Shown here in pieces: positions 17,540 to 23,266 of a stretch of DNA of 64,000 bases (positions are counted from its first letter, which is position 1; each line of letters begins with the position of its first letter). The DNA is from Gammaproteobacteria bacterium. GTDB taxonomy: Bacteria > Pseudomonadota > Gammaproteobacteria > UBA1113. The notes under the pieces are model-generated. The model made no database searches and was not told where the DNA came from. It was given only the letters and a program-made list of their open reading frames with translations. Both the position numbers and the translations under genes were made by a program. The stretch covers positions 1,817 through 65,816 of the forward strand of contig JAJNBM010000003.1 in NCBI GenBank assembly GCA_021156165.1, written 5' to 3'.

Positions 17540-18685
17540 TTGAATACAATATATAACTATGAGGACAATAAAATTATGACAATTGCTTTTTTTGTTAGCA
17601 GCATTGGTGACACAGATTTGGCCTTTGAAACAATGACTGCCTTAATAGAGAAAGGGTATACTAATGAATTTTATGCCATTCCTCTAAGCGCAACGGGGCA
17701 AAAACGCAGCCAAGAAAAAGCTATTTCTCCTCAAATTAAGCTCTTAGCCGAGCCATTGATAAATAGTAAAGATATAGAGGATTTTTTAAATAAGCACTCC
17801 ATTGACCGCGCTTATGTTGGTGTACCTTCTGAAAATCAATATCTACCGTTTCAGGTCGCTAAAGAGTTAGCAACAAAAGATATTCCTTGCACCGTTGCTT
17901 ATGAATTTATGTTTTCAGCGCCACAGAACCACTGCTTCTGGACAGCCATACCTGAATTAACCTCTGCAAAGCTAGATTATGCGGTGAGCCTATCCGCAGC
18001 AAAAAAGGATATTTTAAATAGAAATCCGGATGCTAAGATAAATATTGTGGGCCATTTAAGCATTGATAGGGCTATAGCAAATAATACGATGGGACCTATA
18101 GAAACTAAAGAAAAGTTAGAAATTAAGGCTAATGAAGAGTTTATTTTTATTTCAGGCACTACACAGCCTATTAATGTTGATAGCGAATTTGCCTTGGCCA
18201 TTCTAAATGAACTAGCAAGTAATAACTATCCAAACTTGCAAATTAGGTTTGGCTTACATCCTGGTATTCCTGATAAAGAAAGTTATTTAAATACTCTCTT
18301 GAGTATGTGTGCAAAATATCCTCATTTGTCCGCTCAATTTAAAATTATTTTGTCACCCCCAATTGAACAGCAGGTAAAATCAGAAGATATTTTAAACAAC
18401 TCATTTATAGTAAGAGTGAATGTATCTGGCCCAGAGGCAGCCAATGCCGCCGCTAAAATTGCACAAGCCGTGCCTGGTGCGCTACTTAACGAATCTGTCA
18501 TTAAAGGCAAACCCAGCTATTTTCATAGGGAAGGGGAACCGTATTTACCACGAGACTTTTTCTCTAATAACATTCAGGCATTTTTTAACGCAACAACAAA
18601 TAACAGCCCCCACACTAAAAAAGACCTTGATCTAAACGACAGTACTACAGCAGAAAATATGGCTAATATTATGTGTAAAAAATAA
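17540..18685 (+). CDS. hypothetical protein (two Rossmann-like halves, GT-B-like)
   Basis: 381-aa ORF with no definitive motif. The start may be the Met at 17576. Confidence 0.4.
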   Translation: MNTIYNYEDNKIMTIAFFVSSIGDTDLAFETMTALIEKGYTNEFYAIPLSATGQKRSQEKAISPQIKLLAEPLINSKDIEDFLNKHSIDRAYVGVPSENQYLPFQVAKELATKDIPCTVAYEFMFSAPQNHCFWTAIPELTSAKLDYAVSLSAAKKDILNRNPDAKINIVGHLSIDRAIANNTMGPIETKEKLEIKANEEFIFISGTTQPINVDSEFALAILNELASNNYPNLQIRFGLHPGIPDKESYLNTLLSMCAKYPHLSAQFKIILSPPIEQQVKSEDILNNSFIVRVNVSGPEAANAAAKIAQAVPGALLNESVIKGKPSYFHREGEPYLPRDFFSNNIQAFFNATTNNSPHTKKDLDLNDSTTAENMANIMCKK

Positions 18686-18754: not shown

Positions 18755-19575
18755 CTAGAAGGCAGAATCTAACCCAAGTGCGACAATAGTATATAATTTG
18801 AACGGACATAAAGAGGGAGAAGTTCAGATGGGAAAGCACTATATAAGTAGAGAAGTAAATGTTATACCCATTACTGACAAATCATTACAATTGGTTCCAA
18901 CGCAGGATGTTGAAATCCAAAAATTGATTAATATATTACCACCAGAAAATCATCCTACAGGACAGAGGAGATATATTATTACAGGTGGCCCAGGGGCAGG
19001 GAAAACAACGATAATTAATGAACTATCCAAGGAATATACTGTGATTCCTGAAGCGGCCACTACGATTATTGAAAAAGAAATCGCGGAGGGCATTATTAGA
19101 CCATGGCAATTTGATGATTATCATATTAAGGTCAATCAATTAAATAATATCAACCAAGTTAAAGTTCAAAATTTATCTGTGCCAATTGTATTTTTTGATA
19201 GGGGATTTTTAGATAGTCTTTCTTATATTTTGTTGCAAAAACGAATATTGCATCAATATGTGATTGATTGTGTGCAGACTGTGGTTAATGCAAGCTATTA
19301 TGAAAAAGACCTCTTTTTTATTGATAACCTGGAATACGTCATGCCTGGGCCCGCTCGGAATGAGTCACTTGAAGAATCCTTGCAAAAAGCAGCTTGCTTG
19401 GAGAAAAATTATAGGGCCTTAGGGTATAATATTATTCATGTACCTCCTGGGCCAGTTGAAGATCGGGTGGCATTCATTGTGGCGTGGATTAAATTAAGGA
19501 ACCAATTAAAGTAGCTCCGCTAGAAGCTTCATCAGTAAGTTGTCGCACTTGGGGGAAGATTCTGCAAGAAGGAAG
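18755..19575. mobile_element. single-gene cassette flanked by roughly 30-bp imperfect inverted repeats
   Basis: gcagaatctaacccaagtgcgacaa at 18761-18785, and its reverse complement ttgtcgcacttgggggaagattctgc at 19540-19565. Confidence 0.35.
18798..19514 (+). CDS. P-loop NTPase (AAA_28 / NadR-kinase-like)
   Basis: Walker A motif ITGGPGAGKTT. Length 238 aa. Confidence 0.55.
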   Translation: MNGHKEGEVQMGKHYISREVNVIPITDKSLQLVPTQDVEIQKLINILPPENHPTGQRRYIITGGPGAGKTTIINELSKEYTVIPEAATTIIEKEIAEGIIRPWQFDDYHIKVNQLNNINQVKVQNLSVPIVFFDRGFLDSLSYILLQKRILHQYVIDCVQTVVNASYYEKDLFFIDNLEYVMPGPARNESLEESLQKAACLEKNYRALGYNIIHVPPGPVEDRVAFIVAWIKLRNQLK

Positions 19576-19808
19576 ATACTGGTGATTACTATTATAATCA
19601 CCAGTATGTTTAAAGCCACTGCGCGGATTCAAGTAATAAGTGCAACCACCTTTTTTAAGATTACCGTACTATGTGCTAACAGTAAATAGTCGGGGTTTTA
19701 AGTAAATATGGTAAGATTTTTAGTCAGTTACAGATGGAAACGTCGATTACCGTAGCATATTTGTGATTACAAACTCTTTTCATAGAGATTACTGGCATAG
19801 AAACCATT

Positions 19809-19830
19809 TGCGGCGGGTATACGCCCGCCG
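19809..19830. other. perfect GC hairpin (8-bp stem, 6-nt loop) between convergent genes
   Basis: gcggcggg-tatacg-cccgccgc. No U-tract follows on either strand. Confidence 0.4.
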
Positions 19831-19856
19831 CATTGTGAGATTGTCGTAATTTCGGG

Positions 19857-20429
19857 CTAGCTACATAACTGTTTTATGGCTGGTATAATTTGCGCAAAAA
19901 TACTCCCATAAGCAGCTAACTGTGAAACAAGTTGGTTGCACTTATCTTTAAAACTTAGTTCCCCTACCGATTTTTCCGTCTCTGATATTAAATCATTAAT
20001 AGTTCTAAGCGCATCCCCTTGGAAATTTTTGTTCGCGGTGGATTTAAGCGCACTAAACACATTACTGTTATCAACAGTACTGTTAATAGTGCTTTGGCTC
20101 GAATTTAAGATAACATTAGATTGGTTTGCAGTTATATTATAGACTGGCTGCTCAGTACTTCTATTTTTTTGAATATTAGGTATTTTTTCTAATTTGCATT
20201 CATAGTGCGTAGTATCCACATCACCAGAAAAAAAATCGGCGTTAATGACCAAATACTCTTCTTGTACATTATTTGGTAAGAGCCTAATTACTGTATCCCC
20301 AGCAATAATTTTTACCTTCCTGTCAAAAATAAAAAGCTTATCTCTTTGTAGACTGGCCCTAATTCCATCGACCCTATCTTGCGTTTGACCATTTATTATT
20401 GAAATAACATCGTTCATAAGTTCGTGCAT
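19857..20429 (-). CDS. hypothetical protein, downstream member of a two-gene module
   Basis: 190 aa. Its start abuts the stop of the upstream gene. Shares a QPVYNIxA..SNV..N.QS.I motif with it. Confidence 0.5.
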   Translation of the reverse strand: MHELMNDVISIINGQTQDRVDGIRASLQRDKLFIFDRKVKIIAGDTVIRLLPNNVQEEYLVINADFFSGDVDTTHYECKLEKIPNIQKNRSTEQPVYNITANQSNVILNSSQSTINSTVDNSNVFSALKSTANKNFQGDALRTINDLISETEKSVGELSFKDKCNQLVSQLAAYGSIFAQIIPAIKQLCS

Positions 20430-21119
20430 TTATTTCTCCCCACTTGTGGTAATACTGCTTTGCTCTGTGTTTATGTTTACGTTTGAGTTAGTTGCTTGCA
20501 CGTTATAAACTGGTGGCTGGCTAGAGCTCGTGTATGGCTTTTCTGCTAATGCGTATTGAACTTCATTTTTAGGCTCGGATATAAGTTTAAGCCTAGTTTC
20601 TAAGGCACCTATTTGCCTTGAGAATAGATCAAGAAAAGCCCTATCTCGATTGGGATGCAGATCATATCTGTCCTGTGGAAACCATCTGTCATTACCACCA
20701 TAATTGATATGCTCTAACATCTGCATACAATCATCTTTCCAGCGTTTATATCCCTGTAAGTTAAAAATATGGAAGTACGCACTATTCAGTGATAATTCTC
20801 GTATAATCTCTGTTAATGTTTCTTGGCTTGGCTTATCTGTAGGTAATTCGCTGATAGGAACATATACCGCATAAAATTTTTGGTCTGAAAACCTGCTTCT
20901 CAACGCATCATATACTCGGGCCTCTATGTGCTTTTTTGCCTTATTAACTGAATAATAGATAGTGGGGCAAATTTCTTTAACGGGGTCAGAAAAGTCTTCT
21001 ACTTCTATGAAAATCACCTCAAATCGTACCGATTTATCGTATTTTTCATATTTAGAATACAGCTCTTTACCAGCACTGATATGATCTTCTATGATTTTTA
21101 TAATTGCTTGACTTGCCAT
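20430..21119 (-). CDS. hypothetical protein, upstream member of a two-gene module
   Basis: 229 aa with no known domain. C-terminal SSQPPVYNVQATNSNVNINTEQSSI is repeated in the partner protein. Confidence 0.5.
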   Translation of the reverse strand: MASQAIIKIIEDHISAGKELYSKYEKYDKSVRFEVIFIEVEDFSDPVKEICPTIYYSVNKAKKHIEARVYDALRSRFSDQKFYAVYVPISELPTDKPSQETLTEIIRELSLNSAYFHIFNLQGYKRWKDDCMQMLEHINYGGNDRWFPQDRYDLHPNRDRAFLDLFSRQIGALETRLKLISEPKNEVQYALAEKPYTSSSQPPVYNVQATNSNVNINTEQSSITTSGEK

Positions 21120-21321
21120 ACGCTAATCTCCTTTATGGATTAAAACTAAAATGATATGCCCTTCCCAAGCCTTAGAGACGTTTTTAAGGGCTTACCGCTA
21201 AATATTACTTTTTTAGTAATACCGCCCCTCTATATGGAGGTTATCAGTCTATTTTTCAAGGGGGAAAATTCGTAAAATAAAAAATAAGTCAAAATAAACC
21301 ACAAATAGTCACTATATTTTA

Positions 21322-21657
21322 TTATTTTTTATCTTGATGCCAAACCTGAGCATAAACCCCAGGGTATTCCTTGCCATTTTTATGCTTCATGGTGGTTTGT
21401 GTATCTGGCATTATACGCACATAGTCATAATCCTCATCGCCGCCTAGGCCAGTGGCAGCAGGCAGAAAAATAGGTTTATGGCCAAGGGTCGCATTGGCCT
21501 GGGCTACCTGTAGGTTTGCATCATTAACCAGATTATTGGCATGTTTAACCCAGAAAATTGTACCCACAATAATTAAACCACATACGCCCATGAGGATAAG
21601 AGAGATAAGGTTCCGCCTATCAATATGGGTGGCCAAGGTATTGACAGGCGAATTCAA
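21322..21657 (-). CDS. small single-pass membrane protein
   Basis: 111 aa with one hydrophobic helix (LISLILMGVCGLIIVGTIFWV). Confidence 0.4.
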   Translation of the reverse strand: MNSPVNTLATHIDRRNLISLILMGVCGLIIVGTIFWVKHANNLVNDANLQVAQANATLGHKPIFLPAATGLGGDEDYDYVRIMPDTQTTMKHKNGKEYPGVYAQVWHQDKK

Positions 21658-21916: not shown

Positions 21917-23266
21917 TTAGCAGATTCTGCATTCACTATTTGAGCTTTCAGGGCTGCCCTGTACCTTAGGCGACTCTTTATCTACTTTCTTTTCATTATC
22001 GGAGCTAGAGCCAGTTGGGAAAAAGATAAATGGACTGTTCAAGGATGTGGCCATACTTAACACCTCCACTTCTTGTTGTTGCTTACTTAGCCTTAGCAAA
22101 CCGTTAGCTTCTTCTGGCTCATTCTTGAGTGGTGACTCTGCAGCCTTTGGCAAGGATAAAAAGCTAATTTTTCGCCTCCCCGTCTCTACTGGGGGACTAT
22201 TGGGGGTACTGGGAGACGCACTAGGCGCATTGGGCGCATCGGGATGATAGATAAATATCAAATCACGTAATAAATGTCGCGCTTCATCATATCCCTGTTG
22301 ATAGTAAGTTTCATTTAACCGATCCAACCCATCACTCAGTTTTATCCACGGTTGGGATGGAGAATCGTCACTATCTAACATTAAACCCATGGAATCCTTA
22401 AGTCTTGAAGGAACTGCAGAATACAGTTCGCTAATAACTTTTTTATTTTGTATAATGCTAGATAAAGGGGATTTATGCGCCTCATAATATGCTTCATGGT
22501 ATCTAGTGCATTCGTCCTTCAGCCACTTAATCTTTTCGTTATTATCTTCAGTATTATCTAAAAATTCAGAGCAGCGGCTATAATACCCGCTATTGTCCTC
22601 ATTCAATTCCTTAATCTTTTTCCTATTCTCCTCAATGCTATTCTTAAAAAAATCAGCAAGTTCTTTATCATATTTTCTATGGCTTCCATCTTCTTTGTTC
22701 AGTTCCATAATCTTTTTTTTATATTTTTCAATAGAACCTAGCAATTGAATATACCGTTTACAATATTCTTTATGCTCACTATATTTTTCATTCAGTCCTT
22801 TAATTTCTTCTTTACATTCCTCAATATTTTTAAAAAATTCCGTATAATGCTCACCATATTTTTTAAGTTTGTTATAATCTGCTTTGAGTTTTTTAATTTC
22901 AGCCCCGTTCCCTTTCTCGGCAGAGCTAGCTATAGAATTTATTTTCAATTCTATGATAGACATCTTCAACTCGAGAAGCGAGGAGTAAACAGCAGCACCC
23001 TTAAGACAACTTTCATACATAGCGTCTATTTCAGCCGCGCCTAAGAGCAGCTTAATATATTTTTCACTTTTTTGAATCCTCTTATAAAAAGCAGGATATT
23101 CCTGATGATAAAATTTTTGTCTTAAATTACGTTGTTCTGGATTAATTCCTTTAATTTTTTCTGCGTGCTCAATAGTTTCTTTAAGAAACCTCTCATAAAT
23201 CGAGACATAGTCTTCTTTGAGCCGACGTCTACGAACAGAAGCTGAATTTGGCGGAGTTGCAGCCAT
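21917..23266 (-). CDS. Lys/Glu-rich coiled-coil protein with Pro/Ser-rich C-terminal tail
   Basis: 449 aa with heptad-like KE-rich repeats. The tail reads PDAPNAPSASPSTPNSPP and ends ...SECRIC. Confidence 0.55.
   Translation of the reverse strand: MAATPPNSASVRRRRLKEDYVSIYERFLKETIEHAEKIKGINPEQRNLRQKFYHQEYPAFYKRIQKSEKYIKLLLGAAEIDAMYESCLKGAAVYSSLLELKMSIIELKINSIASSAEKGNGAEIKKLKADYNKLKKYGEHYTEFFKNIEECKEEIKGLNEKYSEHKEYCKRYIQLLGSIEKYKKKIMELNKEDGSHRKYDKELADFFKNSIEENRKKIKELNEDNSGYYSRCSEFLDNTEDNNEKIKWLKDECTRYHEAYYEAHKSPLSSIIQNKKVISELYSAVPSRLKDSMGLMLDSDDSPSQPWIKLSDGLDRLNETYYQQGYDEARHLLRDLIFIYHPDAPNAPSASPSTPNSPPVETGRRKISFLSLPKAAESPLKNEPEEANGLLRLSKQQQEVEVLSMATSLNSPFIFFPTGSSSDNEKKVDKESPKVQGSPESSNSECRIC

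Follow-up and report, generated by a model that had tools for sequence, protein, structure and literature searches.

The closest mechanistic precedent for the genes described here is, by analogy, the Bab/Agp system. In Bab/Agp an amyloid motif of ~20 residues, BASS11, is common to the products of adjacent genes, and upon phage infection the sensor converts a membrane-targeting executor, which triggers abortive infection (Abi) (bioRxiv 10.1101/2024.11.07.622273). Related BASS motifs are rich in Asn, Val and Ile and poor in Lys, Pro and Leu (10.1101/2020.01.06.895854). The genes in question, gene 1 and gene 2, are neighbours on the minus strand of a 64,000-nucleotide stretch (the window) of the gammaproteobacterial contig JAJNBM010000003.1, part of a metagenome-assembled genome, and each encodes a protein with a copy of one short Asn-rich block. 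A second system with which they can be compared is AbiT, which dates back to 2002 but, to our knowledge, still lacks an explained mechanism. The reading favoured here, with somewhat better than even confidence, is that gene 1 and gene 2 form an AbiT-like two-component abortive-infection or anti-phage module in a chromosomal accessory islet, and that the block is its docking or co-assembly element.

The gene pair and its shared block

The two genes and their parts are laid out as follows.

20430-21119, minus strand: gene 1 (P0001, K0R48_161), 229 aa
21128-21133: Shine-Dalgarno (SD) sequence AAGGAG, gene 1's own
20568-21119, minus strand: head domain of gene 1, aa 1-184, delimited by the secondary structure and the confidence of the AlphaFold2 (AF2) model and conserved across a 6-member alignment (A1)
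20442-20525, minus strand: C-terminal block of gene 1, SSQPPVYNVQATNSNVNINTEQSSITTS, aa 199-226, followed by GEK (3 residues) and the stop
20436-20441, minus strand: SD sequence GGGGAG of gene 2, strong, inside the 3' end of gene 1 and 6 nt before the ATG
19857-20429, minus strand: gene 2 (P0002, K0R48_160), 190 aa, a phrog_16834 member from a large three-part family
20166-20429, minus strand: all-beta barrel head of gene 2, aa 1-88, AF2 predicted local distance difference test (pLDDT) ~96
20076-20159, minus strand: internal block of gene 2, STEQPVYNITANQSNVILNSSQSTINST, aa 91-118
19860-20075, minus strand: helical C-domain of gene 2, aa 119-190, AF2 helices at 121-189 with pLDDT > 88, hydrophobic last helix LVSQLAAYGSIFAQIIPAI

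A homologous Asn/Ser-rich block, C-terminal in gene 1 and internal in gene 2, was the core of the original prediction, and it holds up well. The two copies align without gaps, with 13 of 28 positions identical and 21 of 28 positive (BLASTP, pairwise E = 6e-6), and the observed Smith-Waterman score is reached by 0 of 2000 composition-preserving shuffles of the gene 1 tail. With a hidden Markov model (HMM) of the gene 2 family block the gene 1 tail scores 18.0 bits, whereas the best of 3281 shuffled ORF (open reading frame) segments reaches 5.5 bits. When 134 family blocks are ranked by their match to this tail, gene 2 comes out joint best, tied with P0006.

The block is found in essentially every gene 2 family member retrieved. 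In an alignment of 40 family sequences (A2) it is among the most conserved segments, with the consensus YN..G.N.RVNINS.D.S.N, and S110, D112 and S114 are conserved in at least 90% of members. Asn is enriched 4.6-fold and accounts for 23.5% of the residues in the block. Also up are Ser, Val, Thr and Ile, whose rise goes with that of Asn; Lys, Glu, Leu, Phe and Pro are depleted, and Gly and Gln are not enriched. AF2 gives pLDDT < 50 for both copies (gene 1 tail 185-229 and gene 2 residues 100-117). Is the resemblance the trace of a recent event? The block-coding DNA of the two genes is 60% identical with a longest common word of 7 nt, which rules out a recent duplication or a recombination substrate, and 7 of the 13 residues conserved between the blocks use different codons. 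The relationship is therefore old and has been kept at the peptide level.

The two ORFs had been described as directly contiguous on the minus strand, and so they read: the TAA of gene 1 (20430-20432) abuts the ATG of gene 2 (20427-20429), and the junction is GGGGAG-AAA-TAA-ATG. On sequence, this arrangement of stop and start is the layout of translational coupling. Both genes are also in the same reading frame, with one TAA between them. Read-through of that TAA would yield a 420-aa fusion in the order head, block, barrel, block, tail. As a general mechanism, such a fusion was rejected, because in the comparable pairs described below one (L019) is out of frame and two (L027 and L028) have their genes in the opposite order. 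The shared frame in the window is probably coincidental, because the analogous pair of L019 does not have it.

Homologues were slow to appear. Word-index searches with gene 1 or gene 2 returned self-matches only, so both proteins looked like orphans. That was overturned when 1.84 billion representatives were searched exhaustively with HMMER, the query being a concatenation of both proteins: 318 proteins (cluster representatives) came back at E <= 1e-3. A word-index search with an alignment of both families as query had returned just 2 proteins. Where the identity within a family is 25-30%, "orphan" verdicts from word-index searches alone are unreliable. tblastn found nothing for gene 1 and gene 2 in phages, and nothing in plasmids for gene 1 or for gene 0, the gene upstream of it (see below). 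The earlier statement that neither protein has a recognisable domain stands for Pfam, NCBIfam and PADLOC, which like searches of PDB sequences give no match for either, but not for PHROGs, where gene 2 matches phrog_16834 over aa 2-131 (E = 1.4e-19).

The gene 2 family consists mostly of standalone proteins of ~190 aa, and many members instead form the C-terminal part of longer proteins. Gene 2 itself matches dozens of the ~190-aa proteins over its full length, with its three modules collinear. Its AF2 model, built on alignment A2, has a mean pLDDT of 85. The barrel is a generic small beta-barrel that resembles PilZ, split-barrel and phage head-tail joining folds (E ~1e-2 to 1e-3), and in a PDB fold search with the model the alignment was limited to this barrel. 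The C-domain of the family ends in the pattern ..AANH.T..APF.PAL.QLL., and the 19-residue segment of highest hydrophobicity lies at the very C-terminus in 38 of 40 members. The family extends across Bacillota, Proteobacteria, phages and plasmids, and most of its proteins carry the block internally. No signal peptides were found in it.

Gene 1 is a different matter. Its AF2 model, built on a 6-sequence alignment, has a predicted template modelling score (pTM) of 0.70 and a confident alpha/beta domain at 1-184. The model has no fold match in the PDB, and on that model the head appears to be a novel alpha/beta domain. The family is rare, with five relatives (P0003, P0004, P0005, P0010 and P0096) at 27-39% identity in the family alignment, and these relatives occur without gene 2. 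In three of them (P0003, P0010 and P0096) the gene-1-type head has its own transmembrane (TM)-like hydrophobic tail, with a Kyte-Doolittle (KD) hydropathy of 1.7-1.8. Gene 1 has no hydrophobic segment (maximum 19-residue KD 0.53). In P0004 a gene-1-type head, a block and a gene-2-type C-domain are joined in a single chain. Gene 1 alone in its family stops 3 residues past the block.

Matched blocks in relatives and the link to AbiT

Do other neighbouring genes carry matched blocks? A scan with the block HMM covered every ORF of all fetched loci. Besides family members, two neighbours beat the shuffled maximum: the gene 1 tail and, at 10.6 bits, a protein of locus L019. The latter has 145 aa, ends in NYNIDGNGLNININPQNSTIINKKV and is encoded 2 nt upstream of P0006, which is the closest relative of gene 2. 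Its head is unrelated to that of gene 1. Its tail ranks its own partner, P0006, first of the 134 family blocks (69 vs 58).

Two viral contigs, L027 and L028, hold a further form of the pair. Here a gene for a barrel, a second block type (block-2) and a second C-domain type (C-domain-2) is followed immediately by a gene with an AbiTii domain (Pfam E = 1e-39 to 6e-44), and the last ~25 residues of the AbiTii proteins are again block-2. This block has the pattern [FY].G.I..SQIQQ..., and the helical C-domain of this second chassis type (the chassis being block plus C-domain) is different from the first. When the four tails are scored against the four chassis, values are 64-81 within a type, that is against the own partner or a near-identical sister locus, and 23-33 across block types. 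None of 2000 shuffles reaches the observed scores. A head-plus-block gene stands beside a barrel-block-tail gene at four loci (the window, L019, L027 and L028). The heads are of three unrelated types and the blocks of two, and within a pair the block type always matches. The earlier suggestion that the shared block could be a partner-recognition element gains from this agreement. Conserved pairing in homologues, which had been named as a check, gave a divided answer. Taken narrowly, the result named beforehand as refuting is the one seen: gene 2 relatives mostly stand alone, gene 1 relatives occur without gene 2, and the linkage of gene 1 to gene 2 is not conserved. The architecture is.

The modules of gene 2 also turn up in other combinations. 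The gene-2-type barrel is fused directly to TIR in P0091, P0098, P0101, P0147 and an IncI plasmid protein, and P0091, a barrel with a CAP12/Pycsar-type TIR, aligns almost from end to end with PDC-S35, a PADLOC candidate (E = 1e-67). An AbiTii head, a block and a C-domain make up one chain in P0043, in a viral-contig protein (L029) and in a Lactococcus lactis plasmid protein (L034). AbiTii has been described in other proteins as an N-terminal domain ahead of HEPN effectors (PMC3710099), by which block and C-domain would occupy the place of an effector and the beta-barrel that of a sensor. In three hybrids (P0069, P0133 and P0144) the Asn block is of type 1, but it is joined to a C-domain that is type-2-like (AbiTi-like) and has the pattern ..[GD]KPK[KQ]SVI.AL[IL]KSLP.., which in P0069 reads GNPKRSIIKTIAGALP. 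Blocks and tails thus shuffle independently.

How does AbiT come in? The PADLOC model of AbiTi (114 positions) covers block-2 and C-domain-2 of the L027 and L028 proteins (E = 1e-12 and 2e-13) and also the extensions found at the C-terminus of single-chain AbiTii proteins that Brevibacillus and Vibrio plasmids encode. Its match to a single-chain AbiTii protein of Pseudomonas is marginal (E = 0.07). Positions 4-26 of the same model match the tail of the AbiTii-like partner (E = 1.3e-3). We infer that lactococcal AbiT, a validated system of two genes, may itself be a block-sharing pair, in which AbiTi would be block plus helical module and AbiTii head plus block. The only Lactococcus plasmid match is a single-chain AbiTii-chassis protein and not the original two-gene abiT.

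The remaining step is from type 2 to the type-1 chassis of gene 2. In HHalign the two are collinear with a score of 27.7 (E = 2.4e-4, probability 43%), whereas in the controls none of 30 column shuffles scores above 16.8 and the reversed alignment scores 11.7. The two chassis types find each other in reciprocal HMMER matches, and both match the same region of another PADLOC candidate, PDC-M14B. Homology of the gene 2 chassis to AbiTi and the type-2 module is moderately supported by these profile comparisons.

Several of the relatives are of interest in their own right. L034 is the Lactococcus lactis conjugative plasmid NZ_CP042409.1, with genes at 1070-1747 and 1980-2879. Its protein WP_146978446.1, annotated as hypothetical, consists of AbiTii, a type-1 block and a type-1 C-domain, and its gene is divergent from an adjoining TIR-domain gene. 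The genus is the one in which AbiT was discovered, and this is likely an Abi locus that has gone unannotated. Proteins with AbiTii and a type-2 chassis are encoded by moron-like genes on two IMG/VR contigs (L037:1886-2815 and L038:1913-2815), and the one in L037 is surrounded by genes for tail assembly and host specificity in a lambdoid-type prophage. The barrel-TIR gene of PDC-S35 type is widespread on IncI plasmids (174 plasmid records matched). On the E. coli IncI-gamma/K1 plasmid NZ_CP122505.1 (L012, 4995-6097) it is annotated as two adjacent coding sequences, a "TIR domain-containing protein" of 945 nt and a "nucleotide-binding protein" of 144 nt, which suggests a frameshift or truncation of this copy.

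Genomic context

The gene pair lies inside an islet of ~6 kb (17.5-23.3 kb) that has a class II aldolase gene on one side and the ribD-ribE-ribBA-ribH operon on the other. The islet had been called an AT-rich accessory stretch. AT-rich it is, but mildly so, with a GC content of 0.365-0.387 vs ~0.40-0.45 in the flanks. No integrase or tRNA was seen near it, and no secretion-system genes were seen among the ORFs examined around the locus. Its other features are these.

17540-18685, plus strand: 381-aa ORF with a TTG start
18798-19514: gene for an AAA_28 P-loop ATPase (Pfam E = 5.7e-27)
18773-18786 and 19540-19553: perfect 14-nt inverted repeat, CCCAAGTGCGACAA and TTGTCGCACTTGGG, ~12-26 nt from the ends of the ATPase gene
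19573-19610: second hairpin near the ATPase gene
19809-19832, minus strand: GC-rich hairpin, 9-bp stem with 8 GC pairs, 25 nt past the gene 2 stop, T-tail weak
21316-21343, minus strand: promoter-like site TTGGCA-16-TAAAAT upstream of gene 1, a consensus match only
21322-21657, minus strand: gene 0, 111 aa with one TM segment, residues 17-35 having a hydropathy of 2.66
21917-23266, minus strand: gene for a 449-aa coiled-coil protein, between the module and ribH

Two of these had been anticipated. The GC hairpin beside the gene pair was located at the position given and is likely a terminator between convergent genes. The ATPase cassette flanked by inverted repeats is also there, with its domain named and its repeat perfect. 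From its layout, ATPase plus repeat could be a small mobile or invertible cassette, or the repeats and hairpin could be paired regulatory and terminator elements. A block-like match, TIVYNLNG, 5' of the ATPase gene (6.3 bits) was set aside as chance, and it overlaps the inverted repeat and a TATAAT-like box. Promoter-like sites in the region do not exceed the count expected from shuffling.

Gene 0, which the original prediction had not connected with the gene pair, probably belongs to the module as well, and to gene 1 in particular, judging from where its homologues lie. These stand directly upstream of gene-1-family genes in L014/L015 (E = 2e-28; L014:1911-2264) and in L011 (E = 9e-27; L011:4310-4849), and the latter directly follows a MobA/TraI relaxase gene. 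A third (L023:233-802) precedes the gene for an unrelated multi-TM protein. The family has a conserved C-terminal domain, KPIFL...DYVR.MPDTQTTM.H.NGK.YPGVYA.VWH, with the invariant stretch NGK.YPGVYAEVWH, and no name for it was found in any library searched.

The 449-aa protein has a Pro/Ser-rich C-terminal region, and its matches are weak and of coiled-coil type (PADLOC LmuB, E = 4e-6; an archaeal SMC-related protein, 6e-6). The 381-aa ORF belongs to the same low-GC islet and has no match in Pfam, PADLOC, PHROGs or NCBIfam.

Elsewhere, relatives of the two genes occupy accessory regions of plasmids, integrative and conjugative elements (ICEs) and prophages, beside restriction-modification (R-M), toxin-antitoxin (TA), TIR and DUF4238 genes. 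Those in L011 sit between relaxase and type IV coupling protein (T4CP) genes with RelE and a resolvase nearby, those in L010 are near KfrA and HigB, and those in L012, on IncI plasmids, are beside DUF4238 and an AAA ATPase. The L013 relative adjoins a type ISP restriction enzyme and the L037 relative is among prophage tail genes.

Mechanism, alternatives and known systems

Abortive infection was one of several options offered in the original prediction, and it is the one that has gained most: modules of gene 2 are fused elsewhere to AbiTii or TIR, the sister form matches PADLOC AbiTi, and the contexts are prophages, plasmids, R-M and TA genes. How might an AbiT-like pair work? Gene 2 would be a complete single-chain unit, with the barrel head in the sensor position, a connector of ~25 Asn-rich residues and the helical C-domain in the effector position. 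Gene 1 would be an accessory sensor or adaptor, made of a head and a copy of the connector that matches its partner's. The blocks, unstructured in the monomers, would pair by beta-strand zippering, possibly in a cross-beta or amyloid-like form. Such pairing would let gene 1 dock onto gene 2, or nucleate its oligomerisation, once the head is triggered. It would be the oligomerised C-domains that affect the cell. Their most likely route is that the released helix inserts into the membrane, which is suggested because the terminal helix of gene 2 is hydrophobic. An RNase-type activity is the alternative.

A bolder version can be put forward as a tentative proposal that we think is clearly more likely wrong than right. 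It holds that the block is a new class of templating signalling motif (cross-beta or Asn-ladder, amyloid-like) that underlies AbiT and a large combinatorial family of Abi proteins, with gene 1, as a dedicated sensor, nucleating gene 2 via the internal motif of the latter. The heads of this family would include the beta-barrel, AbiTii, the gene 1 domain and others, and its tails would be hydrophobic helical effectors. If true, amyloid signalling would extend beyond the Bell/NLR and Bab/Agp architectures. No literature was found that links AbiT with a shared or amyloid-like motif.

A number of points weigh against the AbiT-like module. Most gene 2 family members stand alone without a block-bearing neighbour, which makes the split form a minority variant, and the linkage of gene 1 and gene 2 is seen in this contig only. 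Neither protein matches the PADLOC models of AbiTi (PDLC02333) or AbiTii (PDLC02334), and the AbiTii domain (Pfam PF18864, PDLC02334) is not present in either. The gene 1 family and the AbiTii heads are unrelated (HHalign probability 0.15%), and for homology of the gene 2 chassis to AbiTi the HHalign probability is only 13-43%. The shared motif within AbiT itself is read from profile matches, not from the original lactococcal sequences. The C-terminal hydropathy of the gene 2 family (mean KD 1.40) is under the typical TM threshold. Moreover, lactococcal AbiTi has been given a weak endoribonuclease-like fold in a recent review (PMC13064643), so that the effector may be an RNase and not act on the membrane. 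The effector activity and a defence function in this organism are presumed, and we infer rather than observe the physical contact of block with block.

What else could the shared block mean? It is conceivable, if unlikely, that gene 1 is the remnant of a P0004-like single chain that has lost its C-domain, its block being a leftover without partner function. P0004 has exactly the would-be ancestral architecture, the two ORFs share a frame with a single TAA between them, and their linkage is unique to this contig. However, gene 1 is intact and looks well expressed, it has an SD of its own and a head that AF2 folds with confidence, and its block has been kept at the peptide level despite synonymous divergence. 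Its stop comes 3 residues past the block, with the SD for gene 2 optimally placed. Furthermore, the arrangement of head plus block, then stop, arose with two other unrelated heads, each beside a chassis gene with the matching block, and in L019 that pair is out of frame. Slightly less probable again is a role in plasmid or ICE maintenance (addiction, TA-like) or exclusion, where gene 2 would be toxic and membrane-active and gene 1, possibly with gene 0, would restrain it. Relatives in plasmid and ICE backbones near relaxase, T4CP, KfrA, ParA and TA genes would fit, as would the gene 0 homologue behind the relaxase gene of L011 and the coupled upstream-downstream order, which resembles antitoxin-toxin operons. 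Against this stand fusion partners of immune type (TIR, AbiTii, PDC candidates), the many copies that are prophage morons or chromosomal, and the fact that most gene 2 relatives are without the partner gene that a toxin would need. Searches of Pfam, NCBIfam, PADLOC and PDB sequences found neither a type II TA family nor a DNA-binding antitoxin domain in the two proteins, and the classical TA pair that had been offered as one option is not upheld.

Could the similarity of the blocks be one of composition, in a flexible low-complexity Asn/Ser linker? The low AF2 confidence of both blocks and their high Asn content would allow it, but conservation is position-specific (S110, D112, S114 and the fixed YN..G.N.RVNI pattern), composition-preserving shuffles never reach the observed scores, and matching is partner-specific, with two block types that never cross-match. 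We regard a mere linker as improbable. Least probable of all is that the block serves an effector-chaperone pair (e.g., Dot/Icm) as its signal for secretion, translocation or chaperone recognition, as had also been proposed. In gene 1 it is C-terminal, where type IV signals lie, and there is a coiled-coil protein in the neighbourhood. However, gene 2 and hundreds of relatives carry the block internally, and these relatives come from Bacillota, Proteobacteria, phages and plasmids without such secretion systems. It is attached to the cytoplasmic immune domains AbiTii and TIR, the family is free of signal peptides, and the ORFs examined around the locus showed no secretion-system genes.

The AbiT-like module thus remains the preferred reading. 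It points to an organising principle in which interchangeable sensor heads are joined to a common helical tail via a short conserved Asn-rich block, and in which both proteins carry the same version of the block where head and tail are on separate neighbours. Matched Asn-rich connector blocks that couple split sensor and effector proteins are possibly a general, apparently undescribed principle. If the block mediates docking or templated assembly, this would supply a mechanism for AbiT-type systems and a sequence signature by which more sensor-effector pairs of the split kind could be found. Otherwise the locus is, even so, a clear example of how modules are shuffled in defence proteins.

How does the pair compare with what has been described? 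PDC-S35 and PDC-M14B are candidate defence systems only, and no literature was found on PDC-S35 or PDC-M14. PDC-S35 is a gene-2-type barrel fused to a CAP12/Pycsar-type TIR. Gene 2 instead follows its barrel with the block and the helical domain, and has no TIR. The C-terminal ~100 positions of PDC-M14B align with the block and C-domain of both chassis types. Gene 2 itself does not match either model at E <= 1.

Effector-associated domains (EADs; Kaur, Burroughs, Iyer, Aravind) are said to couple adjacent genes of conflict systems by homotypic interaction. The block resembles them in that one small module recurs on the products of two neighbouring genes and is combined with varied sensor and effector domains. 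However, EADs are folded, helical, death-like domains, whereas the block of the window has ~25 Asn-rich residues and is predicted to be unstructured in the monomer.

AbiT and the window pair both consist of two adjacent genes, and going by the profile matches AbiT, too, would have one for a sensor-type head with a short tail and one for a partner with the same motif and then a helical module. In AbiT this module would have ~90 aa and lie behind the short motif common to both components. AbiTii heads are also found elsewhere fused to the gene-2-type chassis (block-1 and C-domain-1), including on a Lactococcus plasmid. Unlike AbiT, the head of gene 1 is of an unrelated fold family and gene 2 has an extra beta-barrel before its AbiTi-like part. 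The gene order in the window is reversed relative to the AbiTi-like pairs of L027 and L028, and block and C-domain are of the divergent type 1.

Bab/Agp differs in several respects. The pair has no NLR, NACHT, NB-ARC or TPR partner (Pfam, PADLOC), and thus nothing like the TPR-GreA/B-C-PIN component of Bab/Agp, and its block is not enriched in Gly or Gln. The motif is internal in the executor-like gene 2 (91-118 of 190) and C-terminal in the sensor-like gene 1, which is the reverse of the Bab/Agp order. Nor does gene 2 have the N-terminal Bell/HeLo "MEPIS" sequence of Bell proteins, since its helical domain and hydrophobic helix are both C-terminal. The amyloid nature of the block is a conjecture from its composition and low AF2 confidence. 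Nevertheless, as in Bab/Agp and Bell/NLR (BASS1-11), a motif of ~20-25 residues is found in adjacent gene products, is C-terminal in one of them and is matched within the pair. Over 4 pairs, it is more alike within than between them (64-81 within pairs vs 23-33 across block types). As in BASS pairs, too, the motif is beta-prone, rich in Asn, Val and Ile and poor in Lys, Leu and Pro, and it goes with a helical executor that has a terminal hydrophobic helix and with an Abi or defence context. Should the block prove to mediate docking or templated assembly, it would be a second, architecturally different case beside Bab/Agp, the only demonstrated bacterial defence system based on amyloid signalling.

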